Origin: a virus
UHGV virus genome: UHGV-1364082
DNA: 55,911 nt
Reading direction: 5' to 3' (one strand)
The notes under the pieces were generated by a model. That model worked only from the letters and a program-made list of their open reading frames with translations, had not been told where the DNA came from and did not search any database. Of the stretch, positions 285-55,911 are shown piece by piece; position 1 is the stretch's first letter, and every line of letters begins with the position of its first letter. The position numbers and the translations under genes were made by a program.

Positions 285-410
285 ACCCAAAATATACCTA
301 TATGAATTTTTATCTTGACTTTCAATCGTACCTTTAGGTATTATCTCTTCACGACGCCCGGGGAAGGCGAACACGCCCGGCACACCAGCCGGAAAGTAGC
401 CACAAGCCCC

Positions 411-476
411 GGGCGGAGGAAGCCAGTTTGGGCGGCATGAAGGCCGTAGCGATACGGTGGGCGGAGCAAGAGGCCG
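411..476 (+). repeat. Three imperfect direct repeats, GGGCGG(A/C)NNAAG(A)GGCC.
   Basis: gggcggaggaagcc, gggcggcatgaaggcc and gggcggagcaagaggcc, about 25 bp apart, in GC-rich ORF-free DNA. Confidence 0.5.
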
Positions 477-531
477 CCCGGAAAGCTCGAAAGAGGCCCG
501 TGAGACTGGTGAGGCGAAGAAGTAGTAGCCG

Positions 532-616
532 GGAAGGATGGCAGAGAGGCCGATTGCGGCGGTGAAAACCGCCGATGTGAAAGCATCCGTGGGTTCGAAT
601 CCCACCCCGTCCGCCA
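532..616 (+). tRNA. tRNA-like element with CCA end, type-II (Ser-like) architecture and a non-canonical anticodon loop. Could be a pseudo-tRNA, a frameshift-suppressor-like tRNA, an attP tRNA fragment or a tmRNA-like tRNA domain.
   Basis: Perfect T arm GTGGG-TTCGAAT-CCCAC, then CCCGTCC-G-CCA. Variable hairpin GATG-tgaaag-CATC. Anticodon-like stem with a UGAAAA loop of 6 or 8 nt. D arm GCA...TGC resembles tRNA-Ser. The 5' acceptor strand pairs imperfectly. Confidence 0.45.
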
Positions 617-794
617 GATTGAAAAGTGAAGAGTCGTTGTTTCGAGGGATGGATTCGCAGAGGTGCACGTGTCCAGCGAGTGGTGCACGCGCATAAAAAT
701 TCCTCGCGTAGAGAGAGCCGAATATCTGCGGTGCGTTTGCCAGATTCGGCATGGCAAGCAAAGGCGGCTCCATCCGCTCGAAACAGCGACACAC

Positions 795-869
795 AGCCGG
801 GTAGCCAAGCGGTTACGGCAACAGGCTTTGACCCTGTGATCGGCGGTTCGAATCCGCCCCCGGCTGCCA
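795..869 (+). tRNA. tRNA-Gln (anticodon UUG).
   Basis: Acceptor AGCCGGG/CCCGGCT. D arm GCCAAGCGGTTACGGC, like E. coli tRNA-Gln. Anticodon stem-loop ACAGG-CTTTGAC-CCTGT. T arm GGCGG-TTCGAAT-CCGCC, discriminator G, CCA encoded. Confidence 0.85.
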
Positions 870-1153
870 CGTTCAAATATCGCCGTTCCGGGCGGTGCAG
901 GGAAAACCATATCCCCCTGAAAGCGTGATGATGCCAGTCCCCCTACCCCTGCATCGACCGGAGCAGCGATAAGCCCCAAAACAACGGACGAACATTACCC
1001 GAGCAAGGGGGCGTCCGTTGGAACAACGCGAAGATGTGACTCAAAACGGGCGTTGTACCCCCGCTCAGGCGAGGCAATGCGTTCGGGCGAGGAACGGAGC
1101 ACTATCCACAGACGGCAATAGGGCTGGACTGTGAAACATGACGCGGATGAATT

Positions 1154-3800: not shown

Positions 3801-4106
3801 ATGCCTACGCTCTCCCCATTCATCGGACAGAACGTCATCGTCAGAACCTACAGCGCCGGGGTTTTCTATGGAAAACTCGAAAACATGGACGGTCAGGAAG
3901 CCGTCGTCACGAATGCCCGCCGAGTCTGGTACTGGGCTGGAGCGGCAAGCCTTTCTCAGCTTTCCAAGGACGGCACGAGTAACCCGGATGACTGCAAGTT
4001 TCCCGCTCCGGTCGATGCCGTTCACCTGACCCAAGTGATCGAAGTGCTTCCGCTCACTGAAAAGGCAAAGCTCTCTCTCGATGAGGTGGAAGTATGGCAG
4101 GAGTAA
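3801..4106 (+). CDS. Hypothetical protein.
   Basis: 101-aa ORF with RBS AAAGAGGACACT. Confidence 0.55.
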   Translation: MPTLSPFIGQNVIVRTYSAGVFYGKLENMDGQEAVVTNARRVWYWAGAASLSQLSKDGTSNPDDCKFPAPVDAVHLTQVIEVLPLTEKAKLSLDEVEVWQE

Positions 4107-4189
4107 ACGGCTCCGGCTACGGCTCCGGCTACGGCTACGGCGACGGCTCCGGCTACGGCTCCGGCTACGGCTCCGGCTACGGCGAATAA
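4094..4189 (+). CDS. GSGY-repeat micropeptide of 31 aa (MAGVNGSGYGSGYGYGDGSGYGSGYGSGYGE).
   Basis: ATG 4094 with GAGGTGGA RBS. Overlaps the previous stop, consistent with translational coupling. Encoded by a 12-bp tandem repeat. Ends GAA TAA. Confidence 0.4.
   Translation: MAGVNGSGYGSGYGYGDGSGYGSGYGSGYGE
4109..4183 (+). repeat. Tandem 12-bp repeat (GGCTCCGGCTAC), about 6 units with two variants.
   Basis: Direct reading. Confidence 0.9.
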
Positions 4190-4193
4190 TCAT

Positions 4194-9699: not shown

Positions 9700-10046
9700 C
9701 TCTAACAAAAGAAGAGCGCGACCAGTGGCGCGAAAGACTGTTATCCTCATATACATGTTTCGATGCAGAACACGCGACTTTCACCATCCGGCTACTTAAT
9801 GCGCTGAACCAAGCCGAGGAAGAAATAGCACGGCTGGAGCAAGAAGTATTTTTCTGGCGTGAAGAGACTAAAGACGTGCGAGAAGTCTTCACCAGACAGC
9901 TAGGCTATAAAGACGCAGAGATAGCACGGTTTGAGAGAGAGTTGCACTGGCTGGCGACTATAGCGTTTGACGGGACGGCGGGGATTTATGACAGTCCAGA
10001 AAGGCTCATGGAAGCCGCACGCGAGGCCGTGGAGGAAGGGAGATGA
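9696..10046 (+). CDS. Hypothetical protein.
   Basis: ATG at 9696. Coiled coil. Confidence 0.4.
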   Translation: MTLTKEERDQWRERLLSSYTCFDAEHATFTIRLLNALNQAEEEIARLEQEVFFWREETKDVREVFTRQLGYKDAEIARFERELHWLATIAFDGTAGIYDSPERLMEAAREAVEEGR

Positions 10047-21797: not shown

Positions 21798-24700
21798 TTA
21801 TCTTGAAGTGGGAATCATGCTCATGCCATAGCCCTTACGAAGCACATTGCTTGCCCCCCCACTGCGCTTGACCATGCTACGGGTGACCATTTGGTCAATC
21901 ATGATCTCAACATCAAGGCTTCCGTCTTCATTTTGCCGTTGGTTCGTTTCGACCTGTGCCCCGGCGTTGTTGATGACGGTGACGTTGACAATCTGCTTTC
22001 CCGTTCCCTCCGCCCGGACGCCCAGATTGCCGCCGGAAGTCCGCACAAGCGGCATGACCGCTTCCGGCCCGGCCTCGCCCATGATTCCGCCACGGGCGAA
22101 AGGAGTGAGTCTATCAAACCCGAACAGCGTGGGCTCGCTGACAATACTGTTGGAATACGAGGAGATGCCCGCACCGGACAGGATATTCCCATGTGCGCTC
22201 GGGGTAGCCCCTGCAACGATGGAGTCAGCAAGATTATTGAACTTGATGTTCGTAGACCAATCAGAAAACAGGTTACTCAGTCCACTACCCAACGCACCAG
22301 CCAGAGGCCCGGTGATGTTCGCCCGCACAGTGAGCCGGATCAGGTCGGAAATCATGGAGTTCACCATGTCCGAGAACGATAGCTTCCCGGTAGAAGCGAA
22401 CGCCACTATCGCGTCTTCCATGCTCGAAAAGGCATTGGTGGTCAGGTTCTCAAAACCTTGCGCGAGGTTGGTAGCCTCTGAAAAATACTCTTGCGTCGCC
22501 CGGTACGCCCCGGCCCATGCTTCCCGGCTGTTCTGTATTTTCTGGAGCCGCAACCATTCGTCCGCAAGCTCACGAGTAATGCCCACGTTCCGAATCAGGT
22601 TGTCCGCCTGTAGCGAAAGAAGCTGGTCCACATATTCCTGAGAACGCCCCGCATCCCCCGACAATTGCGCAAGCTCACGGTAGAAGTCGGCGGCGGCTTG
22701 CGCGTCCTTGATCTGCGATTGCAGATTCATAGCTTCGCGGAGTTGGTTCGTTTTCGCCGTCACCTCTGTTTCAGTGAGGCCAAGCCCGTTGAGCCGCGTA
22801 GTCCATTCATTGATGGCTTCCACAATCTCAATAGCCCGCAGTTCCTTGGTATTCCCTTGAGCTTGAAGAAGTTCTTTGTTGAATTCCTTCAACGTGCTGG
22901 TTTTGAACGCGGTTTCGTAATCCGTCTTGAGCTTGTTGATTTCATCGCCGGAAAGTTTCGCCTTAGCCCCTACAGATTCGATTTCCCGCAGGGTCTTGGA
23001 AAGGTCAGTATTGGCCTTTACGTCAGTACCATTCAGACGGTCTATTTCTTCCCGAAGCTGCTGCACCTTTTCCTTGGCATTATCGATTTCAGAAGTGCCT
23101 TTAGTGGATGTCTTGAGCTTGGGTGTTTTCAGATTGTTAATAATTTGTTGCAGCTTTTTGGCGTCATCAGGATTGAATCCCTCAAAAGTTCCCTTGAGTG
23201 CCTTCTCAATTTGTTCTGGTTTCAAATCCTTAAAAGAACTCTGAAGAAATGATGCCGCTGAACGCATTTCTGTAGGGAGACGATTTGTAAAAGCTATGAG
23301 TTCGCTTTGTTTAAGTGCTTCATCAATACCTGAAAGACTTAACAAAGAGGCTTTGGTTACCTGAGAAGCATTTGAGGCTTGATTTAGGCTATTTGTAAGG
23401 TTTTTTATATTGTTAGTTGCATTTTGTATGGTTATTGTTGCTGCATCATAGTTTTTTAACGTGTTTAATACTTCTTGTGCAAATTTAGCGGCATCTTCGG
23501 ATGTTGAACCAAGAAAACTGATCTCCTTTGCCGTTGCGCCGATATCTGCTTTTCCATTTTTAACGTCTTGAAGAAAGTTGCTTACGACTCCGCGAATTTT
23601 ATCAACCGCGTCTATTTCTCCGTTCGTATTAAGATACGATTCCCACGGATTGGCATTAGCCATAAAAGCTAACGCAGTAAGGGAATTTTGCTGATCTCTT
23701 TTAGCTTGCTCTTGTGCCAATTTAGCTTGTGTTGCCGAAAGGTTTTTTATATTTGTTTCGGTGTCTCCAGCCTGCTTTGCCTGTTCTTTAAGAGCCTGAG
23801 ATACCCGCGTGTTTACATCTTTATACCTTTCGGCAATGGCCTCTGATTCGCTTTGGCGTGTAGCGAGATAGGCAACCGCACTAGCCGCAATTGTAAAAGC
23901 CGCGCCCCAAGGACCACCAAAAAAACTGAGTACCCCCGCGCCAACAGAGCGAAGTCCAGAGAGGGCTTTAGAGGCTGCCAAAGTGCTAGAAACCAAAACT
24001 CCAGATTTAGCTTGGAGTTGAGCGATAGCGGCATTTGCTCCAGCTATCTGCTCTTTGTATCCTTCCACGGTAGCAAGCATCTGTTGCCGTAGCTGTGGAG
24101 CGGCATAAGAAAAATTAGGGCCAAAACCTTTTTTGCTGGAAACATAGCTAGACAGAGCCTGTTGTGCGGCCTGTAATTCTAGTTGCTTGTTTTGAATGGC
24201 AGATTGTTTTGCAGTAGCGATTTCTTGGGTTAAGGCTATAGACCTTTCCCTAATGGATTGAGTATCAGCCTGACGTGCAGCCCTCAACGCAATAAGGCCA
24301 GCAACAACAGAAGCGGTCGCAGCTTGGAGGGAATGAAGATTTTCCGTAGTGAACGTGAGCCCGTTATTGAACAGATCTAAAGCCTTAGCAGCGACGCCTC
24401 CGAAAGATTCACCAATTTCCGTGGCAAGGTTGGAAAGTAAACTTTGCGTTGTAGAGGTAAGGCCATTGATGGTTTTGGTATATCTCCCAAAGGCAGAAGC
24501 TAGCGTCCCGGATCGATTTTCCAATCCAGTTAGAGCCTTTTGGTATTCTGAAGCCAGATCGATAAGATTCTTTGCGGCTATCTGCGCCTCTTGAGAACCA
24601 AACAACGAAGATATAGAAGTTCCCGTTTTTTCTGCTTGCTTAGAAATGGTTTGCAAGGCTTTGAGAATATCTCCACCGCTGGACTGCAAAAGCTCCTGAA

Positions 24701-25541
24701 AATTTTCTTTTCCAAGATCGGATAACACTCTCTTGAGGTTTTCGCTTTCCTTGGTGGTTTCAAGAAAAAGGGCCTTAACTTGGGTAGAAGCTGTAGCGGT
24801 GCTTCCTGCCGTCTGAGTAATGATGGAAAGGGAAGCTCCAAGGCTATTGAGGTTAACCCCGGCAATGCGGGAAACACTGGAAAGCTCCCCGATATACGGT
24901 ACAAGTTCCTGAACGGAAGTTTTCCCATATCGTTCAATCGCAAAAAGAGTATCTGCCGCGTCCGTAGCACCCTTCAATTGCCCCGTATACCCTGTCATGA
25001 GCGAAGTCAGGGCTTTAATCGTGTCGGCCTGACTAACCCCCGATGCCTTTGCAGCTTTAGAAGACGTCTCAAGAACATCAAGAGACTTCGCGGTATCGGT
25101 GACGCCCGCAGAAAGGACTTGATAGTATCCAGTCGCAAGCTCAGTATATGACCCTAAAGAGGAGTCGATAGAACGCAAATTTTTGTCTACCGAAGCGAGA
25201 GATTGATCTGAAACCTTCCCAATGTTTACGAGTGCGGTTTCATAGTCGGCATATCCTTTGATTGACTGGCGCAAAAATTCTTCAAGGCCAATCGCGGAAA
25301 GAGCCGTCAATGCTGTTTTTTTGAGAGAAACAAGAGAACCATTCAACCCAGAGACAGCATTTTGTGCTTGCTGCATGGAAGTAGATAGAGCACGTTCGGC
25401 GTTAGTGGCTTCACGTGGTACTATCTTGAGAAATTTGTTTGTCTCTTTGAGGGATTCGGTTACGCCATGAATCGAATTTTGAGCCTCTTTCGATTTCTTT
25501 TGGATTTCCGAAATATTGAAACGAAGAGTAATGCCTGCCAT
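21798..25541 (-). CDS. Tail tape measure protein.
   Basis: About 1250 aa, largely helical and repetitive. Position. ATG at 25541 with GGGGGT RBS (table start is TTG). Confidence 0.85.
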   Translation of the reverse strand: MAGITLRFNISEIQKKSKEAQNSIHGVTESLKETNKFLKIVPREATNAERALSTSMQQAQNAVSGLNGSLVSLKKTALTALSAIGLEEFLRQSIKGYADYETALVNIGKVSDQSLASVDKNLRSIDSSLGSYTELATGYYQVLSAGVTDTAKSLDVLETSSKAAKASGVSQADTIKALTSLMTGYTGQLKGATDAADTLFAIERYGKTSVQELVPYIGELSSVSRIAGVNLNSLGASLSIITQTAGSTATASTQVKALFLETTKESENLKRVLSDLGKENFQELLQSSGGDILKALQTISKQAEKTGTSISSLFGSQEAQIAAKNLIDLASEYQKALTGLENRSGTLASAFGRYTKTINGLTSTTQSLLSNLATEIGESFGGVAAKALDLFNNGLTFTTENLHSLQAATASVVAGLIALRAARQADTQSIRERSIALTQEIATAKQSAIQNKQLELQAAQQALSSYVSSKKGFGPNFSYAAPQLRQQMLATVEGYKEQIAGANAAIAQLQAKSGVLVSSTLAASKALSGLRSVGAGVLSFFGGPWGAAFTIAASAVAYLATRQSESEAIAERYKDVNTRVSQALKEQAKQAGDTETNIKNLSATQAKLAQEQAKRDQQNSLTALAFMANANPWESYLNTNGEIDAVDKIRGVVSNFLQDVKNGKADIGATAKEISFLGSTSEDAAKFAQEVLNTLKNYDAATITIQNATNNIKNLTNSLNQASNASQVTKASLLSLSGIDEALKQSELIAFTNRLPTEMRSAASFLQSSFKDLKPEQIEKALKGTFEGFNPDDAKKLQQIINNLKTPKLKTSTKGTSEIDNAKEKVQQLREEIDRLNGTDVKANTDLSKTLREIESVGAKAKLSGDEINKLKTDYETAFKTSTLKEFNKELLQAQGNTKELRAIEIVEAINEWTTRLNGLGLTETEVTAKTNQLREAMNLQSQIKDAQAAADFYRELAQLSGDAGRSQEYVDQLLSLQADNLIRNVGITRELADEWLRLQKIQNSREAWAGAYRATQEYFSEATNLAQGFENLTTNAFSSMEDAIVAFASTGKLSFSDMVNSMISDLIRLTVRANITGPLAGALGSGLSNLFSDWSTNIKFNNLADSIVAGATPSAHGNILSGAGISSYSNSIVSEPTLFGFDRLTPFARGGIMGEAGPEAVMPLVRTSGGNLGVRAEGTGKQIVNVTVINNAGAQVETNQRQNEDGSLDVEIMIDQMVTRSMVKRSGGASNVLRKGYGMSMIPTSR

Positions 25542-25674
25542 CTTTTCTACCCCCGGATGAATGCCTATGAGCAAACATCACTGGAGGGGAAAAAGCGAGG
25601 CAATGTTGGTATAAAATAAAAAACAAAGCCCCCTCCGCACGTTACAATACAGAGGGGGCTTTGTTAAATAATTT

Positions 25675-26322
25675 TTAAACTGACGATGCCATTTTTAAAG
25701 AAACTAATTTTTTTTGTAATTCATCCAATTTAAGAACTAATTGAGGAAATAAAGGTTTTTCCTCAGTATCATTAATATGTTTTATGGCAGTTCCCACACA
25801 TGATATGATTAACATTCCATTACCACGAGTGGCCTCTGTTACCGTCAAAGTTACTCCTGATAAAGCATTTCCTCCTTTTTTTAAGGATTCCATTTTGGCA
25901 ACATTAATCGCCCTAGCCTCACCTGTACGGATTTTTTCAAAATAGGCTACAGATTCTTGTCCAAACAAATCAGTAAAGGCAGAAGCTATTTCTGTAAATG
26001 GGCCTGTCCCAATAACAGAATACCCTGAAACCATTCCCTTAATTTCAAATTTCCAATCTTCTGGGGGAGGCGTTGTGAAAACTTGTATTTTTTCTAATTC
26101 TTCTTCTGTAACAGATTTTAATTTTGTCTTTAATTCTTCAATATTAGCCTCTATATCGTTTTCTACTTCTGCACGTTTCTTTACAAAGCATTGCAGACAA
26201 TAATCATCAACATTTTTTCCTAATTGTTTGAGAGCTTGTACGGCAGAATCACTAGGTCTGTCAGCTTTAAATAATCCAGTGAATTTATTACCACATACAC
26301 AGCATTTCTCTGCATCAGACAT
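25675..26322 (-). CDS. Zinc-ribbon protein with C-terminal YbjQ/DUF74-like domain.
   Basis: CCVCGNKF...CLQC, then ...YSVIGTGPFTEIASAFTDLFGQ...GEARAINVAKMESLKKGGNALSGVTLTV. AT-rich. GGGGG RBS before M11. Confidence 0.45.
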   Translation of the reverse strand: MSDAEKCCVCGNKFTGLFKADRPSDSAVQALKQLGKNVDDYCLQCFVKKRAEVENDIEANIEELKTKLKSVTEEELEKIQVFTTPPPEDWKFEIKGMVSGYSVIGTGPFTEIASAFTDLFGQESVAYFEKIRTGEARAINVAKMESLKKGGNALSGVTLTVTEATRGNGMLIISCVGTAIKHINDTEEKPLFPQLVLKLDELQKKLVSLKMASSV

Positions 26323-26445
26323 AAATTTCCCCCTTTTACCCCCACCCTCCACATTTTCCGGCGCATGTCAACCGCTATTGAGCGCACGATGAACAACCTG
26401 TTGACTTTCTAACTCCGGTATGGTTCGGAATCGGCAGGAGGAGTT

Positions 26446-27096
26446 ATGAAAAAACTTTTATTGACGCTGGTTGTGGCGGGGATGTGTTTAGGGATGGTCG
26501 GGTGTGCCTCTCAAAAGCCATTAACCCCAGAGGAAATAGCTGCCGAAAGAGAACGGCAAATCCAAATGACTACTCGTATATACGAGGGAAAGACGCCTGA
26601 AGAAGTACTACTTGCTGCGGATAGAGTTTTCCGACTTGCTGATGATGACTACAATGTTTCTCATCAAGGAACGTCTCTACAGGCTCAAAGAGATTGGCTA
26701 GTTTATATAGTTATCGCGGCTGCTAGGGGGACGGATACTTGGGTTGTTCAAACATTCCCTGTGGAAAATGGGACTAAAATTGTTGCTATGCATAGCGGAC
26801 AAGGGCAATCCATTAATGCAGTCCCGACAGCTAACTTTAATGGGGGGATGGGGGTTACCGCTACAACAGGCCCCATCATGGCAAACATGACCACTTCTCC
26901 TGCCATTTATCAACTTTTCTTCGCTCGTTTAGACAATCTATTGGGTAAAAGTCCTAACTGGATTACTTGCAAAGAAGCCAACAAGCTATTTACAGATGGT
27001 AATTTAGAACCTTTATGCCTTGTTGCTAATGATAGAACTCCTGATGGCAAATCTGCTGTACAGAGGAATAGAGAACTCGAACAGGCTAATCAGTAG
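26446..27096 (+). CDS. Lipoprotein (candidate superinfection-exclusion or lysogenic-conversion factor).
   Basis: Signal peptide MKKLLLTLVVAGMCLGMVGC with a lipobox. Divergent from neighbours. Confidence 0.6.
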   Translation: MKKLLLTLVVAGMCLGMVGCASQKPLTPEEIAAERERQIQMTTRIYEGKTPEEVLLAADRVFRLADDDYNVSHQGTSLQAQRDWLVYIVIAAARGTDTWVVQTFPVENGTKIVAMHSGQGQSINAVPTANFNGGMGVTATTGPIMANMTTSPAIYQLFFARLDNLLGKSPNWITCKEANKLFTDGNLEPLCLVANDRTPDGKSAVQRNRELEQANQ

Positions 27097-27103
27097 GTAC
27101 GAA

Positions 27104-27130
27104 TAAAGGCGGTCGTAATGACCGCCTTTT
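27104..27130 (+). terminator. Rho-independent terminator.
   Basis: AAGGCGGTCGTAATGACCGCCTT followed by TTTTT. Confidence 0.65.
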
Positions 27131-27324
27131 TTTACATTTCATTTGTTAATGCAAGCATAACACACTTAAATATAACGAAATACTCTGTTTTTATTGAAAC
27201 TTCGCGGCCGATACGGATTGAACGCCGCTGGCCCGGTTTCACGCCTTGAAATATAAGGATATTTTCCGTTTTTTCTATGATCGCTCGCCCACGGTGAAGG
27301 CGGTTCTTGGAGCCGCCTTTTCGT

Positions 27325-27852
27325 CTATTCAGATTCATCTGTTGGTGCCAGAATCAGCCCACACTTTGCTGCCATTTCCTCATTCAGTACTAGAACCGGG
27401 CGGCTTCCCCAATTCCATGCCGTACAGAAGTGGCGAAGATACTCCTTCAATGCGTCATGAACGCCGGGGAGCCAGTCTTTTTCATGATTCTTGATAACAA
27501 GTACAAAGCAAAAATCAGTTTTGGCATAATCGACTGATGCCAACAATTCTCCTAGATCTGCATTCCTTCTTGAAATGATGACACTGAGCAGCAAAGAAAA
27601 TCCGTCAATAGCCTTCTGTGCGATTTCGCCTATGAATTGTTTAAAGTTATCTGGTGATGGTTCCTTGGGGTGTGGCGCAGATGTCTTTGCCTCCACCAAG
27701 CAAATCAGCCCGGGACTTTTCTTCCTGATGAACTCAACGGACTTGACACCTTGCAACCCGGTATCATGAACGTATTTTTCGACAAAAAATGTGTGGCGGG
27801 GATCACAAAGAAAATGCATCCCTGACTCACAAATCGTCTGAACAGTGCTCAT
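27325..27852 (-). CDS. Small partner protein, possibly a PD-(D/E)xK nuclease.
   Basis: ...FLCDPRH...GLICLVEAKTS... resembles D...ExK. ATGA overlap with the upstream ATPase. Confidence 0.35.
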   Translation of the reverse strand: MSTVQTICESGMHFLCDPRHTFFVEKYVHDTGLQGVKSVEFIRKKSPGLICLVEAKTSAPHPKEPSPDNFKQFIGEIAQKAIDGFSLLLSVIISRRNADLGELLASVDYAKTDFCFVLVIKNHEKDWLPGVHDALKEYLRHFCTAWNWGSRPVLVLNEEMAAKCGLILAPTDESE

Positions 27853-28859
27853 GCCAGTGATACCCTAACTTCTTCTTCGTAAAGCCTCACAGACTCGTCA
27901 ATGATGCTGTTCTTAGGCATTCCATCAAGCATGTCATTGTAGACTGCCTTACCATCCCCAAGCGAAAGGACAGGGATGGACATGTCCCTTTCGAGCGCAA
28001 TAATAAAGAGCTTTTTGATAACGAAGTAAGAATGCGTTGCGATAAAAAATTGTATACCGCATTCAGCAAGCAACGTGATAATTTCCATGAGTTCGCTGAT
28101 TGCCTGTGGATGGAGGGCGGCTTCCGGTTCATCTATGAAAATCCGTGAATCAGGCGTGAGGTAACGGTTTCCAAGAAGTGTATCTAGGATAGCCGTCTTT
28201 TTCGTGCCTTCCGAAGTCGTACCAATCGGAAAACGGAAACTTCCCTTCTTGAACGTCCAGCGATCCTTTTGCGGGTCGAACTCAATCTTACCGCCGAGGA
28301 AATCGCGCAGCTTTTCCCGTGAAGAGGCAAAGGCCGTGAGGTTTCTACCTTTGGTGGTAGAAATGCGTAACGCTTTTGCGAGATCAAAATAGGTGTCGTC
28401 AAACCCGAACATTGCATCCTGTTCCCGCGACTTCAAAATGATCTTTTGTAAGGAAAGCACTTCCTTTGCGGGAAGAAAGATGGAGCTTGTTTCCGTTGGT
28501 AGCGTGTTGCTTGTGACCGAAACTTTTCTTGTCGTATCCTGACCAAACGAGAAAGAAATACCACCCTGTTCCGTCATCATGGAAAAACTAAGGGGTGATT
28601 CAATAGGTTTTCGTACCAGATCGCCAAGCCTTTCAGCCTGAAAAGTCCAGTAAAGTTTGTCGGATACGATCTCGGAAATGGTTCGGTTATCATTTCCACG
28701 CCCGTTCTGCTCAATACCCTTTATCGCCACATACATAGCCTTGAGCAAGAAAGTCTTGCCTTGACCATTCCCGCCAAGTATAAGGTTGATATTGGTGAGA
28801 TTGTCCCATTCGATACTCTCTAATGGGCCGAAATTCTTGAGTGCAACTGACGTGATCAT
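27849..28859 (-). CDS. ABC-type AAA ATPase (AAA_15/AAA_21-like), defence-associated type.
   Basis: Walker A ILGGNGQGKTFL, Walker B RIFIDEPEAALHP, H-loop IATHS. Confidence 0.65.
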   Translation of the reverse strand: MITSVALKNFGPLESIEWDNLTNINLILGGNGQGKTFLLKAMYVAIKGIEQNGRGNDNRTISEIVSDKLYWTFQAERLGDLVRKPIESPLSFSMMTEQGGISFSFGQDTTRKVSVTSNTLPTETSSIFLPAKEVLSLQKIILKSREQDAMFGFDDTYFDLAKALRISTTKGRNLTAFASSREKLRDFLGGKIEFDPQKDRWTFKKGSFRFPIGTTSEGTKKTAILDTLLGNRYLTPDSRIFIDEPEAALHPQAISELMEIITLLAECGIQFFIATHSYFVIKKLFIIALERDMSIPVLSLGDGKAVYNDMLDGMPKNSIIDESVRLYEEEVRVSLA

Positions 28860-29029
28860 GTTTTTTCCTATGGAATATATAACGTTTTGTAAACAATACA
28901 GAAAAAAGAATTAGAGAACAAGAGGGCATCCCCCATAGAAATGAAAGATGATGCGGAATAACACAAGGAAGCCCCAACCGTGGGAGGACAAGACGGTTGG
29001 GGCTTCGCGTGGGGAGGGGAAGGGAATTT

Positions 29030-29806
29030 TTAGGCGGCTGCGGGCGTGGTGGCAGAAAGAAATTTTTTGACGAAGTAGAGTTGCCCCTTGCCTGTGACCT
29101 TGGTTGTAAATCTGGTTCTGGTTGAACCATCAGGGTTATGAACGAGGTATTCTTTGACCTCAAACAAACCCATTTCCATGCTTTTCTGCGTGGGCGTATT
29201 CTTACGGCTGCCCGACTGAATGAGAAAGCCCTTTTCGCGGAGATAGACAAAAAGACGGTTCTGTCCAATCTTCACGCCATTTTGCACCAGAAGCTTCGCC
29301 AAGTGCCCAATCAAGATAGACGAACGGGAAGCCGCTACGGAATCAGCAAAAAGGACTTTCGGCGCGTCCTGTTCGACCTTGGCGGCAAGGGCGGCGCTTT
29401 TGGCACGCTCCTCTTTCAGTGAGGTAAGCAACTTGATAGCCGTATCGGGGTCAGCAAGCATAGCTTCAACGGTATGGGGAGTAGCGTATAGGCCGCGCTT
29501 GCGGATGGAGGGGATGACATCATGAGTCACCCACCGTTTGAACGCCTTGGCTTCCGGCTTGCGGGAACGGAGAATGAGGGAATACAGGCCGGGTTCGGAT
29601 ACGACGAGCATTTGCTGTTCTCCGCCGGGGGTACGAATACTGTTCGTACCCTTTTCGTCGTCATCCAAAAGGGAAATTGTTTTGCTCACATCAGTAAGTT
29701 CCAGACACTCGCACACGTCCTTAGCTACAAACCACGGATCACCCTCGCGCTCGACAACCCGAACCTTCCCAAACTCAGCCTTCTCGAAAATCTGCATTTC
29801 GGACAT
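29030..29806 (-). CDS. BRO-N / KilAC antirepressor.
   Basis: N-terminus MSEMQIFEKAEFGKVRVVEREGDPWFVAKDVC...SEPGLYSLILRSRKPEAKAFKRWVTHDVIPSIRK. C-terminus FADSVAASRSSILIGHLAKLL (KilAC). Confidence 0.75.
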   Translation of the reverse strand: MSEMQIFEKAEFGKVRVVEREGDPWFVAKDVCECLELTDVSKTISLLDDDEKGTNSIRTPGGEQQMLVVSEPGLYSLILRSRKPEAKAFKRWVTHDVIPSIRKRGLYATPHTVEAMLADPDTAIKLLTSLKEERAKSAALAAKVEQDAPKVLFADSVAASRSSILIGHLAKLLVQNGVKIGQNRLFVYLREKGFLIQSGSRKNTPTQKSMEMGLFEVKEYLVHNPDGSTRTRFTTKVTGKGQLYFVKKFLSATTPAAA

Positions 29807-29910
29807 ACACAATCTCACTGCTAAATGTGGATGTGCCCGCGTCGCTAATGTGTAGCAGAGAAGAACCACATCAGCGACCGGACACCGGATATCGAGAGAG
29901 AATCAACACG

Positions 29911-29952
29911 GCTGGAGAGGGAAAATCCAGATGATGTTGGTACGAAAGTTTG
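29911..29952 (-). promoter_or_regulatory. Conserved 41-bp late element, copy A.
   Basis: GCTGGAGAGGGAAAATCCAGATGATGTTGGTACGAAAGTTTG, shared with copies at 40999 and 48496. Confidence 0.5.
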
Positions 29953-29988
29953 TGTCTTCCGAAAAAAGAAAGGCTCCTGAATGGAGCC

Positions 29989-30234
29989 TCATTTCTCATA
30001 CGCCCTATCAAGGGCTTGTACTGTTACCTCGCTTAATTCCGGGCATATCCCACAGCATTCTCCTTTTCCTGTTCCAAAATGCCGCATAAAAAGATGACAC
30101 CATGCTGGTCGGGGTGCGTCTTCAGGTAAGGGGAAATCGTGAGATAGTGCGGCGTCGATGGAAAGAAGCACCTCAACAAGTTTTCTCTCATCTTGCGTCA
30201 TGCCGCCCCCATTGGCCTGATACCTCCCCTGCAT
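29989..30234 (-). CDS. Hypothetical protein.
   Basis: 81-aa ORF. Confidence 0.35.
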   Translation of the reverse strand: MQGRYQANGGGMTQDERKLVEVLLSIDAALSHDFPLPEDAPRPAWCHLFMRHFGTGKGECCGICPELSEVTVQALDRAYEK

Positions 30235-40067: not shown

Positions 40068-40928
40068 TTAGAGGCCCGCAGGAATCGGGACGCCAGCTTC
40101 TTGCATCAACGCTTTGGCGCGGGCCGGATTAACGCTAAAAAGTTTCATTTGTTCCCCTACGTTCCAACTTTCCTTTGCCCACGGATTTTTGGCGGAGCTT
40201 ACAAAGCTAGGCTTGGTCGCACCGGAACCGCCGGGCATGGTGTCCCGCAAAATGCGTTCTTTGTAGGGATACTTTTCGATCAGTGCTTCGATAGCCTCTT
40301 CCGGAGAAGCGAATGTTCCCGGATTGGAACGGCTGAAAATGGGCTGACCGTCGAGGGATGCCACGGCTTTAAGTTCGCCGTTTTCTTCTTTCACTTCGAA
40401 ATGTTTGCCGAAAGCGGCATAGGCCATGTCAGCGGGAAGGGTAGTTTTTTCTCGCAAAAAGGTACTTGCTTCAAAAGCACCCCGCACAACGAGATTGCGA
40501 ATCGCCGCGTTCTTGCTATCCAAGGCTTCTGTGAGTTTTTCAATTTCCTTCACATGAGCCTTGTCTTTATCTTCAAGCTTGACTTTCCATCCCTGATCAA
40601 CCTGCGCCTTGAACTCTTCCACCTTCCCGGCGTCAATGAGTTTCCCGGCTTCAAGGTTGGCGACGGTTTCAAGGGCGGCCTTAGCCTTCTCCGGATCAAG
40701 CCCTTCAAACGGCTTGAACTTGGCATTGAGGTCATCCAGTTCCTTACGGCGTCCGGCGGATTCCGCATTCACAGCGGACAGCTTGCCTACAAGATCAGGG
40801 ACATTGTAGGGGATTTCTTTGCCGTCATCGGCTACCCATACAGGGATACCTTCCTGCAAAACCGCATTGCCGTTGTCATCGAGCTTGAGTTTCATCTTTT
40901 CCTTCTCGGTTCGTTGTTGCGGCATCAC
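40068..40928 (-). CDS. Head scaffolding protein.
   Basis: Lys/Glu-rich coiled-coil protein upstream of the capsid gene. Confidence 0.55.
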   Translation of the reverse strand: MMPQQRTEKEKMKLKLDDNGNAVLQEGIPVWVADDGKEIPYNVPDLVGKLSAVNAESAGRRKELDDLNAKFKPFEGLDPEKAKAALETVANLEAGKLIDAGKVEEFKAQVDQGWKVKLEDKDKAHVKEIEKLTEALDSKNAAIRNLVVRGAFEASTFLREKTTLPADMAYAAFGKHFEVKEENGELKAVASLDGQPIFSRSNPGTFASPEEAIEALIEKYPYKERILRDTMPGGSGATKPSFVSSAKNPWAKESWNVGEQMKLFSVNPARAKALMQEAGVPIPAGL

Positions 40929-40998
40929 GCCGGATTCATTGCCTCGGCTTCACGCCACCTCTGCGGATCGTGCCGCGTAACTGCTCAGAATAGACGAG

Positions 40999-41039
40999 GC
41001 TGGAGAGGAAAAAACAACGTGATGTTGGTACGAAATACG
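40999..41039 (-). promoter_or_regulatory. Conserved 41-bp late element, copy B.
   Basis: GCTGGAGAGGAAAAAACAACGTGATGTTGGTACGAAATACG. Confidence 0.5.
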
Positions 41040-41156
41040 AAAAGGCACAAAAAAATCCCCCGCATCGTCTGACACGGGGGATATTGATTGCGGATGGAGG
41101 TGTGATTTTGTAGGATAGGGATGTGGGGCAACCTCTCCCGAAAGGAGGGTATCCCC

Positions 41157-41240
41157 ATGAAACGCTTCCTCCGGGACGTTCTCGTTGGCTTGCTGGCGAG
41201 CGTTCTTGCGGCTGTGCTGGTTCGCTTGCTGAACCTCTAA
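41157..41240 (+). CDS. 27-aa membrane peptide, type-I-toxin-like (MKRFLRDVLVGLLASVLAAVLVRLLNL).
   Basis: Strong RBS AAAGGAGGG. Followed by a hairpin. Opposite strand to the surrounding operon. Confidence 0.4.
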   Translation: MKRFLRDVLVGLLASVLAAVLVRLLNL

Positions 41241-41247
41241 AAACGCA

Positions 41248-41285
41248 GTTGCCCCGGTAGGGAGCGAACCTACCGGGGCGCAAAA
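41248..41285 (+). terminator. Hairpin terminator.
   Basis: CCCCGGTAGG...CCTACCGGGG. Confidence 0.45.
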
Positions 41286-41397
41286 CTGTGATGCTGAATC
41301 ACGGGGGACGTGCCCCACACGGGGCGGTGAGTGTTAGCGCACTTGCCGCCCTTCTTCTCTAGAAGATAAATTTTCCTGTTGGGAAGGTCAAGAGCCA

Positions 41398-47192: not shown

Positions 47193-47275
47193 CTCCGCTA
47201 TCGGCCCCGCATGAAAACCTTGGGCAGGGGCGCGGAATACCCTTTTCGGCTGGCCTACCTAGCCCAAGGAAATTT

Positions 47276-47788: not shown

Positions 47789-48079
47789 TCACTTCCCGGT
47801 CACGGCCTTGACTTCAGACTGGACAGCGGGAGACTTGCCGTCAGCCACGGCCCCTTTGTTCTGCCCGAAGTGCGCTGCAAAGGCATGAACCCACCGATAT
47901 ACGGCGGCATAGGCCCCGGTTGTTTCCTTGGGTACGGGCATCCATACGGTGGCTACGGCGCATAGGCCGCACACAGTCATGAGCACACTCAGGGCGGTGA
48001 TGATCCATGCCGCGTCGGGATACTGTGCAGAAAGCTGCGCCAAGGTAGACAGAATGAAGTCAATCACGGTGGTTTCCAT
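47789..48079 (-). CDS. Holin-like protein.
   Basis: Two TM helices. Coupled to the endolysin. Confidence 0.5.
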   Translation of the reverse strand: METTVIDFILSTLAQLSAQYPDAAWIITALSVLMTVCGLCAVATVWMPVPKETTGAYAAVYRWVHAFAAHFGQNKGAVADGKSPAVQSEVKAVTGK

Positions 48080-48462
48080 CAGTATTTACCTCCATGCTGG
48101 TAAAAGGCGACGTCCTGCGGCTTGTTCGGATCGTTGTCGAGATGAACCCATGTGGGGGCCAGTTCGATACGCCGGAATCCGACTTCAAGCGCAGCTTGGA
48201 GAATCAGGAAACGGGTGTGCGAGTTGATGCACTTGATATCTACGGCGTACCCACGGGTATGGGCGGAATCGTCCACTCCACCGACTGCCTGATTGTGCGC
48301 CGGACAACGGTAGGCGGAAGACAATACCAGCGGGATACCAGCACGATCTCGAACTTCATCAAGCATCATGAGCAAGTCTTGATTCATGTGCTCAATGCCG
48401 CCACCGCATCCGTCCTTGCAACGGAATTCATCCGGGGAGAAATGGCGAAGAGAAATTTGCAT
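48079..48462 (-). CDS. Endolysin, peptidase M15 (DUF882/YcbK-like).
   Basis: FSPDEFRCKDGCG...LSSAYRCPAHNQAVGGVDDSAHTRGYAVDI. Confidence 0.7.
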   Translation of the reverse strand: MQISLRHFSPDEFRCKDGCGGGIEHMNQDLLMMLDEVRDRAGIPLVLSSAYRCPAHNQAVGGVDDSAHTRGYAVDIKCINSHTRFLILQAALEVGFRRIELAPTWVHLDNDPNKPQDVAFYQHGGKY

Positions 48463-48495
48463 AAGAAAAGCTCCTATTTCTGGATACTAGGAGCT

Positions 48496-48538
48496 TCTGG
48501 AGGAGAAAAATCAACAGCATGTTGGTACGAAGTTTGGA
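48496..48538 (-). promoter_or_regulatory. Conserved 41-bp late element, copy C, with a sigma70-like -35/-10 downstream in minus orientation.
   Basis: TCTGGAGGAGAAAAATCAACAGCATGTTGGTACGAAGTTTGG. On the minus strand: TTGATT, 19-nt spacer, TAGTAT, then the RBS of the endolysin. Confidence 0.5.
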
Positions 48539-49050
48539 TTATTCCACCATTTGTTGTTTTTCGTCTCAATGAAAACGGAGGTATGCCCACAGGCAGAGCA
48601 CTTTGAGTACCTGACAATCATGCGGATGTTCCCATCATCGTCATATTTTTTCTTGGTGTGATAACAGACCATTGCGTCCTGATGGCACTTGGGGCACGGC
48701 GGGCACTTGCGCTTTCTGGGCTCAGTCCGGACTTCCTTACGTGGACGGATGATTTCGAGGGGAGTAGAACGTCCTATTTTGACTTGAATGATGGTAAGCG
48801 CGCCACGGCTGCGCAACCGCCGATAAAAGCGATAGATGGAGCGGTAGTTCTTGATTTTGCGCCAAGGACAGTAGAAAACGGACAGATACAGAATAGCGTC
48901 CAGATGCGCCCTGATTTCAATGGCAGACATGGAAAGATGGATGCGGGGCATGTACTGGTGGATGATAGGGAGAATCCGGGCAAAGGCCGCATCGTCAATA
49001 GCGGTCAACCCGCCCCTGCGTTCAAAGTCCAGCTTGGCGCGTTTTCTCAT
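48511..49050 (-). CDS. Possible Ogr/Delta-like zinc-finger late activator (N-terminus uncertain).
   Basis: ...CPKCHQDAMVCYH...KCSACGHTSVFIETK resembles C-x2-C...C-x2-C..TFI. Located at the lambda Q position. Confidence 0.3.
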   Translation of the reverse strand: MRKRAKLDFERRGGLTAIDDAAFARILPIIHQYMPRIHLSMSAIEIRAHLDAILYLSVFYCPWRKIKNYRSIYRFYRRLRSRGALTIIQVKIGRSTPLEIIRPRKEVRTEPRKRKCPPCPKCHQDAMVCYHTKKKYDDDGNIRMIVRYSKCSACGHTSVFIETKNNKWWNNPNFVPTCC

Positions 49051-54555: not shown

Positions 54556-54978
54556 ATGAATGAAAACATGTACGAACGTATTATGCGAAATTTGAAGATG
54601 ATCCTACAGGATCGCGGCAAGCAGGCGGAGCTTTCAGCAATTACGGGAATAGCTGCACCTAATCTTTCTCGATGGTATACCGGAGAGCGAAACAACCCTA
54701 CGCTGAAAAACGTAGGTGCTGTATTCGACGCGGTAGGGGTCAAGGTAATTTTCCCTTGGGAAGTAGAGGGAGATTTTTCTAAAGATATTGATGCAAAGAA
54801 TAAAAGGATTCACGAACTTGAAATATCTATGGAAAAGTTGTCTCAAGAAAATTTAAGGCTTGAGGGGGAAAATAGACTTGCGCAAAAGCAGATCGAAAAT
54901 CTTACTAATGAGAAAATTGATCTTCTAATAAAAATTCGCCAAATGAGTAAAGAAAACCCCGCACAGGGCGGGGAATAA
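54556..54978 (+). CDS. CI-like repressor (XRE HTH plus coiled coil).
   Basis: LSAITGIAAPNLSRWYTGERNNPTLKNVGAVFDAVG. Confidence 0.65.
   Translation: MNENMYERIMRNLKMILQDRGKQAELSAITGIAAPNLSRWYTGERNNPTLKNVGAVFDAVGVKVIFPWEVEGDFSKDIDAKNKRIHELEISMEKLSQENLRLEGENRLAQKQIENLTNEKIDLLIKIRQMSKENPAQGGE

Positions 54979-55811: not shown

Positions 55812-55911
<100 letters not shown>

Follow-up and report, generated by a model that had tools for sequence, protein, structure and literature searches.

Late-gene switches of temperate phages are known from few families, namely Q, Ogr/Delta, C/Mor, and RinA/ArpU, and phage late promoters that depend on a dedicated factor are well known. Phage P2 has four late operons with one conserved element upstream of each and promoters that lack a usable -35 box; its Ogr protein, like Delta of P4 and B of 186, is a small zinc-binding protein. 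Phage Mu, which uses C (and Mor), has four activator-dependent late promoters (Plys, PI, PP, and Pmom); three of them precede the lysis genes, the tail genes, and an accessory gene, and one separates the F-like gene from the scaffold/protease gene. In lambda (PR'-qut-tR'), the Q gene is flanked by the nin/RusA genes and the lysis genes, the regulatory site comes right after the gene, and a hairpin precedes the lysis genes. In Gram-positive siphophages, the late activators RinA, ArpU, LtrC, and Alt are encoded just upstream of the lysis/packaging genes and turn on late transcription. Here we describe a 36-bp element that is present four times in the viral genome UHGV-1364082, which was analyzed over its whole length of 55,911 nucleotides (the window). 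Judging from the sequence, the four elements are most likely late promoters of a lambda-like gut phage, one heading each late operon. Both the element and its candidate factor, a 179-aa protein encoded at the Q locus of a lambdoid genome (48511-49050, minus strand), are new.

We give a probability of about 0.55 to the reading in which the four elements serve as late promoters that depend on a phage factor, probably the 179-aa protein, and at which transcription resumes downstream of terminators. It is based on the copies themselves, their two-block conservation and spacing, their placement and association with terminators, the domains and gene position of the protein, and the co-occurrence of gene and motif in relatives. 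From these we infer promoter activity, start sites, binding, and the role of the 179-aa protein.

On the gene strand, the element consists of two blocks in a fixed order, TACCAACAT, then 16 nt, then CTCCAG, and a T-run at the end of the 16-nt spacer, immediately 5' of CTCCAG, is constant in all four copies. All four are on the minus strand, which is the gene strand, and are either intergenic or at the end of a gene. The endolysin copy (48497-48532, CTTCGTACCAACATGCTGTTGATTTTTCTCCTCCAG) is upstream of an M15 endolysin gene, the scaffold copy (41000-41035, TTTCGTACCAACATCACGTTGTTTTTTCCTCTCCAG) is between a Mu-F-like gene and the scaffold gene, the anti-repressor copy (29912-29947, TTTCGTACCAACATCATCTGGATTTTCCCTCTCCAG) is upstream of an anti-repressor gene (Bro-N + KilAC) at the start of a low-GC island, and the tape-measure copy (25581-25616, TTTTATACCAACATTGCCTCGCTTTTTCCCCTCCAG) is 39 nt upstream of the tape-measure ATG at 25541. 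Together with the preceding nucleotides, their minus strands read CTTCG-TACCAACAT-GCTGTTGATTTTTCTC-CTCCAG, TTTCG-TACCAACAT-CACGTTGTTTTTTCCT-CTCCAG, TTTCG-TACCAACAT-CATCTGGATTTTCCCT-CTCCAG, and TTTTA-TACCAACAT-TGCCTCGCTTTTTCCC-CTCCAG, in the same order. The likeness stops at the borders of the 36-nt stretch, and exact TACCAACAT is confined to the four late sites within the window.

An earlier reading made from the letters of the window alone (the sequence-only reading) had reported three copies. These are present (29912-29946, 41000-41034, and 48497-48531, with 3, 0, and 1 mismatches to its consensus) and exceed chance, with 0.00 consensus matches expected in 100 shuffles; its count has to be raised by the tape-measure copy, which was found by a repeat search. 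The genome-wide motif search that it had proposed, performed with a position weight matrix (PWM) of the four sites, gave exactly four matches at 46 to 51 bits. The next best match in 56 kb scored 11.9 bits and the background from shuffled sequence had a mean of 11.7 and a maximum of 17.6 bits; no additional weak copy rose above this background in the whole window.

In close relatives, both blocks and the 16-nt spacing are constant, while the 7 to 9 nt after TACCAACAT vary. The spacer of the tape-measure copy is TGCCTCGC in the window and GAACTGGT in the relative L003, and that of the anti-repressor copy exists in three variants among relatives. A CAAC-N5-GTTG dyad, which the sequence-only reading had placed in each copy, falls inside this variable stretch and differs between relatives too. 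The dyad is found in the scaffold and endolysin copies; at its position, the anti-repressor copy has CAAC-ATCAT-CTGG and the tape-measure copy CAAC-ATTGC-CTCG. It is conserved neither among the copies nor among relatives, and a role of it as activator site is not supported. In this the element differs from the P2 site, a TGT-N12-ACA dyad near -55, and from the Mu sites, which are dyads centered at -43.5, because it is made of two asymmetric blocks with no conserved dyad.

The placement of the copies links them to terminators. In the late region, each of the three strongest intrinsic terminators of the minus strand has an element copy 10 to 27 nt downstream. The first, at 25622-25665 (19 pairs, T-rich tail), is 10 nt upstream of TACCAACAT of the tape-measure copy; the second, at 41055-41082 (12 pairs, T7 tail), is 24 nt upstream of that of the scaffold copy; and the third, at 29970-29990 (8 pairs, TCTTTTTT tail), is 27 nt upstream of that of the anti-repressor copy. 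In L003, homology to the window begins inside the tape-measure element; the upstream gene and the terminator are unlike those of the window, yet the order, terminator then element, is the same. Since these three operons begin right after strong terminators, late transcription would stop and re-initiate, unlike the read-through under lambda Q. The scaffold copy is preceded by a small opposite-strand open reading frame (ORF) with its own terminator, and the anti-repressor and tape-measure copies flank an island whose content differs between relatives; for these reasons, the terminators appear to have come in as by-products when accessory genes were inserted, and the elements look like restarts.

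Each copy heads an operon on its own strand, in positions where separate late-operon promoters would be expected, and the lysis, head, and anti-repressor genes that the sequence-only reading had named downstream were recovered. The endolysin copy heads the lysis and packaging genes, starting with a Peptidase_M15_3 endolysin (48079-48462, minus), after which come an Rz-like spanin, terS, terL, portal, and the Mu-F-like gene. The scaffold copy heads the head and proximal tail genes, the first of which encodes the scaffold protein (DUF6651 / phrog_206; 40068-40895, minus; start taken at the ATG with the Shine-Dalgarno (SD) sequence GAAGGA). The anti-repressor copy heads the island of the anti-repressor Ant (29030-29869, minus; probable start at ATG 29806), and the tape-measure copy heads the genes of the tape-measure protein (21798-25541, minus) and the distal tail. 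These places are analogous to those of the four late promoters of Mu, and the arrangement of one element per late operon is that of P2.

The regions next to these copies contain two further features. The small plus-strand ORF of about 34 aa (41157-41260) has a strong ribosome-binding site (RBS; AAAGGAGGG) and a terminator at 41321-41352 (plus); squeezed in between the Mu-F-like gene and the terminator upstream of the scaffold copy, it looks like a moron. The island (25622-29990; GC about 0.44), between tail chaperone-like genes and the tape-measure gene, encodes Ant, a 336-aa ATPase-like protein (27849-28859), its 175-aa partner, a plus-strand 216-aa protein whose gene has its own terminator, and a 225-aa protein. 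Its content varies in L003 and L012, and it may be a defense or moron hotspot.

The endolysin copy has a different setting. It overlaps the last six codons and the stop codon of the 179-aa gene, TTC GTA CCA ACA TGC TGT TGA, which encode F-V-P-T-C-C-stop, and it is followed by a hairpin (48466-48498, minus; 11-bp stem, 11-nt loop, U-rich tail) and then by the endolysin ATG. The 3' arm of this hairpin contains the endolysin SD sequence AGGAG, and hairpins that likewise enclose the endolysin SD are present in L018, L038, L039, L040, L045, and L046. We read it as a terminator and a translation block for early read-through RNA. In the proposed mechanism, the promoter would abut this early-operon terminator and initiation would occur inside the hairpin or at its foot. 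A late mRNA starting there would avoid termination and have its SD free, whereas early read-through RNA would be terminated and untranslatable.

As a side observation, the C-terminal P-T-C-C is kept across the protein family despite a tail that is modeled as disordered (predicted local distance difference test score, pLDDT, below 50). At the gene end in the window (48511-48531), the codons CCA ACA TGC TGT coincide with the first DNA block, and the conservation of this peptide may therefore stem from the DNA element.

The 179-aa protein, which the sequence-only reading had already proposed as a candidate factor, remains a good one by virtue of its domains, its gene position, and the co-occurrence of the motif in relatives. 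It comprises a helix-turn-helix (HTH), a linker, and a Cys4 zinc ribbon. In the structure model (mean pLDDT 76), the N-terminal domain is helical, the linker is disordered, and the ribbon consists of four strands. The N-terminal HTH is of the IS5-transposase DUF4096 type, with distant family members exceeding the DUF4096 gathering score, and the ribbon is similar to those of NrdR, TFIIS, and TFIIB. With 18 clusters among 1.84 billion representatives, the family is rare; it was found in uncultured gut and environmental phages only and carries only automatic database names ('TFIIS-like'); its sole genome match is a Selenomonadaceae metagenome-assembled genome, at 36% identity. A scan with a distant subfamily as query matched only transposase-like HTH domains.

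The 179-aa protein shares with Ogr, Delta, and B the nature of a small zinc-binding phage protein, and it differs from Ogr by its extra IS5-type HTH, by its score below the Ogr_Delta Pfam threshold, and by being encoded in a lambdoid rather than a P2-like genome. Membership of the Ogr_Delta family was not supported, PF04606 being absent from the matches of the C-terminal domain even at E <= 10. Short relatives that consist of the zinc ribbon only reached at most 22.5 bits to Ogr_Delta, versus a cut-off of 26.3 bits, beside many generic zinc ribbons, and BLASTP against P2 Ogr, with an approximate Ogr sequence, gave no alignment. Membership of the Q family (Q-lambda, Q82, Q21) was likewise not supported for want of similarity by sequence or fold, and that of Mor/C since no such Pfam match was present among the approximately 50 ORFs scanned. 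The window phage differs further from Mu in not being transposable and in having DnaB, RusA, Erf, and an integrase. RinA, ArpU, LtrC, and Alt resemble the 179-aa protein in gene position, just upstream of lysis/packaging genes, but belong to unrelated protein families and usually act at a single late promoter before terS.

In the window, the gene order RusA, dUTPase, 179-aa gene, M15 endolysin corresponds to the slot of Q between the nin/RusA genes and lysis. A related Klebsiella phage, which shares the terS-terL-portal-MuF-scaffold-capsid module, has Q in that slot (order RusA, Q, lysis genes), with a consensus promoter, TTGACT-17-TATTAT, after it. No consensus sigma-70 promoter was found at any of the four copies, and the minus strand around the endolysin copy (about 48400-48560) was likewise empty. 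In 9 of 11 further family loci, the gene either stands between nin-type genes (RusA, VRR_NUC, dUTPase) and an endolysin gene or adjoins the endolysin gene of a P2-like lysis cassette; of the remaining two, L036 stops short of an identifiable next gene and L049 is without a lysis gene. The locus thus resembles lambda in having the gene between nin/RusA and lysis, the putative regulatory site right after the gene, and a hairpin before the lysis genes. It differs from lambda in the absence of Q homology and of a strong constitutive promoter, in having four sites rather than one, three of them after terminators, and in a logic that would be one of re-initiation.

The motif accompanies the regulator gene in relatives. 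A (T/A)CCAAC(A/T)T sequence followed by about 8 nt and a T-run is found where the family gene ends, or shortly beyond, in the window and in L018, L045, L048, L049, L047, and L040, and looser forms are present in L017, L038, L039, and L046. The sites read TCCAACAT-ATTGTTGA-TTTTCCCC-CTCCGT in L045 (59% identity to the window protein), TCCAACTT-GCGCGTGA-TGTTTCTCTTCC in L047 (43%), TCCAACAT-AAGATTGA-TTTTTCCCG-CTTCGT in L048 (41%), TCCAACTT-GCGGTTGA-TTTTTTCTTCCGTCCAG in L049 (38%), and TCCAACAT-CCCCTTG-TTTTT in L040 (about 30%). In L048, the stop codon of the gene lies upstream of the TTGATTTTT stretch and the stretch is still kept, which indicates that it is conserved as DNA and not as codons.

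An independent test was provided by L047, the sole distant relative with a long contig, using a PWM built from eight sites, none of them from L047. In the 18.5 kb scanned, the top two matches were at the end of the regulator gene (22.9 bits) and in the gap between the Mu-F and scaffold genes (18.1 bits), the latter after a weak hairpin; the maximum in shuffled sequence was 14.8 bits. These two matches are at the positions equivalent to the endolysin and scaffold copies of the window. With the same PWM, the Q-carrying Klebsiella phage (L044) gave at most 9.0 bits. We also noted in L047 an exact 11-mer, TCCAACTTGCG, at 9934-9945 (minus), which is shared with the site at the regulator end; it is on the opposite strand, in the 400-nt gap between holin and terS, with no T-run after it.

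Two geometries were considered for the way in which the element would be read. We favor the one in which the 179-aa protein helps the sigma-70 holoenzyme to use a weak AT-rich hexamer located 7 nt after CTCCAG. The factor would read the asymmetric TACCAACAT-N16-CTCCAG, including the T-run, over about -50 to -20, its contact would replace a proper -35, and the host RNA polymerase would initiate a few bases downstream; the elements would not be self-sufficient sigma-70 promoters. The candidate -10-like hexamers on the minus strand are TAGTAT (48484-48489, endolysin copy), TATTCT (40987-40992, scaffold copy), GATTCT (29899-29904, anti-repressor copy), and TGCTCA (25568-25573, tape-measure copy), and L018 and L045 have TATTAT and TATTTT, respectively, at the corresponding place. 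A poor -35 at 19 bp would then be provided by the T-run/TTGATT, and if TAnTnT is taken as the -10, as three of the four copies allow, the layout would resemble that of Mu Pmom, with its poor -35, 19-bp spacer, and T-run. The T4 MotA/AsiA middle promoters, in which a phage factor box takes the place of the -35 and a sigma-70-type -10 is kept, provide an analogy; the MotA box differs in being a single 9-bp box at -30, and no AsiA-like or MotA-like protein was found in the window.

The sequence-only reading had described this activator-dependent sigma-70 layout, with TTGATT or TTGTTT, 19 bp, and TAGTAT or TATTCT. Two copies conform to this layout; the third does so less well (TGGATT...GATTCT), and the fourth lacks it (TCGCTT...TGCTCA). 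It is one of the two possible geometries, in which CTCCAG, the best-conserved block, lands in the spacer and the tape-measure copy does not fit. The statement that the hexamer stands about 25 to 30 nt before the RBS could not be maintained, the distances being 8 nt to the endolysin SD, about 80 nt to the scaffold SD, and about 90 nt to the likely Ant start.

We considered the possibility that the boxes are read in a sigma-like manner, with CCAACA as the -35, CTCCAG as the -10, and a start about 7 nt after CTCCAG, by a phage sigma-like factor or a re-targeted polymerase; a host sigma factor may be an alternative reader. CCAACA-17-CTCCAG is constant in the four copies and in all close relatives, the 17-bp spacer is within the sigma-like range of 16 to 18 bp, and this geometry accounts for the tape-measure copy, which lacks an AT-rich hexamer. 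AAC, which is present in the -35 block of the element, is typical of the -35 boxes of extracytoplasmic function-type sigma factors, and CTCGAA in L017 and CTTCAT in L018 are at the same 17-nt distance. Yet, in L038 and L039 any similar hexamer stands at a different spacing, CTCCAG has a high GC content for a sequence that has to melt, the 179-aa protein is unlike sigma factors, and no sigma (Sigma70_r2/r4) or RNA-polymerase Pfam domain was detected in about 40 to 50 ORFs, early and unknown ones among them, those below 90 aa having been scanned in part. We regard this geometry as unlikely, though it is the strongest of the competing explanations. More doubtful still is that the protein acts as a Q analogue, the element being a promoter-proximal loading site for a termination-resistant polymerase and the hairpin after the endolysin copy a tR'-like terminator. 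The comparison with the Klebsiella phage puts the gene exactly at the Q position, the U-tailed hairpin between element and lysis genes is conserved in family loci, and the late region does contain strong terminators. In contrast to a Q phage, however, the endolysin copy has no strong constitutive promoter, nor has the protein any similarity to the Q family. An antiterminated polymerase needs one loading site, whereas four are present, three of them after terminators and with no terminator close downstream; the leader before the hairpin, of a few nucleotides at most, would be too short for a Q-type paused complex.

A role at the RNA level, with the pyrimidine block UUUUCCUCUCC serving as an anti-SD, processing, or protein-binding site in the 5' leaders of read-through late transcripts, appears quite improbable. 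The CCUCC-like block can indeed pair with nearby SDs (CCCCUCC with GGGGGU at the tape-measure copy, UUUUCCUCUC with GAGAAGGAAAA at the scaffold copy), and in L040 the motif is the 5' arm of an SD hairpin. Yet, depending on the copy, the SD is about 25 to about 95 nt away, and block 1 has no pairing partner. RNAalifold applied to the copies returned 0 pairs and no covarying pairs, and no Rfam family reached its gathering score at the element sites, the window matches being confined to tRNA and int-alpA elsewhere. Furthermore, the tape-measure element begins 10 nt after a 19-bp terminator, so that little RNA would include it. It is even less probable that the elements have no regulatory role and are leftover junctions at module borders, spread by duplication and kept alike by recombination. 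Homology does break inside the element, the L003 sequence to the left of block 2 being unrelated to that of the window bar TACCAACAT, with a spacer like that of the anti-repressor copy, and two copies border the variable low-GC island. The elements clearly serve as crossover points, as L003 shows, but such use is compatible with promoter function and may follow from it. Against mere scars, the spacer diverges while both blocks and their spacing are fixed, the orientation and the order terminator-element-gene are uniform, and the motif persists at the corresponding sites of L047 despite a regulator identity of only 43%. Least probable of all is a feature of the plus strand (a small gene, or a cis-antisense RNA ending at the adjacent hairpins) or a set of repressor stoperators. 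The sequence GGAGAGG does stand 12 to 13 nt before an ATG, and the 'RBS + ATG TTG GTA' pointed out in the sequence-only reading is present. As that reading had stated, the encoded peptides part immediately (MLV*, 16 aa, 17 aa, and a read-through of 51/52 aa, that is, 3, 16, 17, and 51 aa, with only MLV(R) in common), which places the conservation at the nucleotide level; the T-tails of the hairpins are on the minus strand. Stoperators of mycobacteriophages are asymmetric, intergenic, and in one orientation, as are the sites described here. The immunity region (53.9-55.9 kb) is at background, with no copy or near-copy of TACCAACAT, which leaves the CI-like repressor without a matching operator. 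Both a conserved plus-strand peptide and an operator or stoperator were rejected on these grounds.

Several points weigh against the reading of the elements as factor-dependent late promoters. A convincing -10 is found in no copy, the hexamer being acceptable in three and TGCTCA at the tape-measure copy. In orthologues, CTCCAG gives way to CTTCAT (L018) or CTCCGT (L045), and no recognizable motif was seen in the distant family loci L024 and L036, the former being the Selenomonadaceae locus, which at 36% identity is too diverged for the motif to show. As the close relatives are 91 to 99% identical, the invariance of the blocks among them carries limited weight, and gene conversion between copies could add to the likeness. 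Finally, the result with L047 covers two positions only, within 18.5 kb of the 39-kb contig logan:SRR29273036_113196.

The finding brings together a compact cis element and a candidate regulator family that has no characterized member, in a genome whose close structural relatives use Q. We tentatively suggest that this family (IS5-type HTH plus TFIIS/Ogr-like zinc ribbon) replaced Q in a lambdoid lineage, with late expression by terminator-promoter re-initiation. The regulator would have its own last codons (P-T-C-C-stop) within its first target promoter, which would fire in the hairpin, so that only late RNA would yield endolysin. If true, this would represent a new class of late regulator and indicate that Q-type read-through can be swapped for stop-and-restart on the same set of structural genes. 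It would also provide an example of a portable terminator-promoter cassette and of a promoter-terminator overlap that silences an endolysin gene until late. Re-initiation would allow accessory islands with terminators to sit in a late operon without loss of tail gene expression.

The window represents a complete, circularly permuted genome of about 55.9 kb, one relative joining window positions 349-910 to position 55911. The relatives at 91 to 99% identity come from human-gut metagenomes. They were the only ones found by an exact-pattern scan of viral contigs, and protein-based scans of viral and metagenome contigs returned mostly near-identical relatives. The regulator region had no DNA or protein match among 50,697 deposited phage records and no match in E. 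coli genomes, and a literature search gave nothing relevant. The layout is lambdoid, with a CI-like repressor gene (54556-54978, plus) facing a consensus early promoter, TTGATC-17-TATAAT (54500-54472). On the minus strand, the early genes follow in the order CII-like, replisome organizer, DnaB, RusA, dUTPase, and the 179-aa gene. Next come the M15 endolysin, Rz-like spanin, terS, terL, portal, and Mu-F-like genes, then the scaffold, capsid, and tail genes, the low-GC Ant island, the tape-measure gene, and the distal tail genes. The left arm encodes Erf, SSB, HU, Rha, and an integrase. The large terminase is 67 to 70% identical to counterparts in temperate Pseudomonas, Klebsiella, and Salmonella phages; this similarity, together with the Rz-like spanin, indicates a diderm host.

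Further features of the window were observed along with this analysis. An Rfam int-alpA RNA motif at 47205-47269 (minus) scored 43.5 bits, for a gathering score of 35.8, and lies within the 95 nt that separate the lysis genes from the gene preceding terS. Two tRNA genes are present on the plus strand (532-616 and 795-869) and are carried by relatives too (L009); one is tRNA-Gln(TTG), and the other is an 85-nt tRNA-like sequence to which ARAGORN assigned no amino acid ('tRNA-???'). At 4095-4190, six tandem 12-nt units (ACGGCTCCGGCT) in overlapping ORFs would encode a Gly/Ser/Tyr-rich repeat. An 18-nt palindrome, TTTACTAAATTTTAGTAA, occurs three times around small ORFs of the left arm (2472-2489, 2915-2932, and 2949-2966); these palindromes are operator-like and unrelated to the late element.

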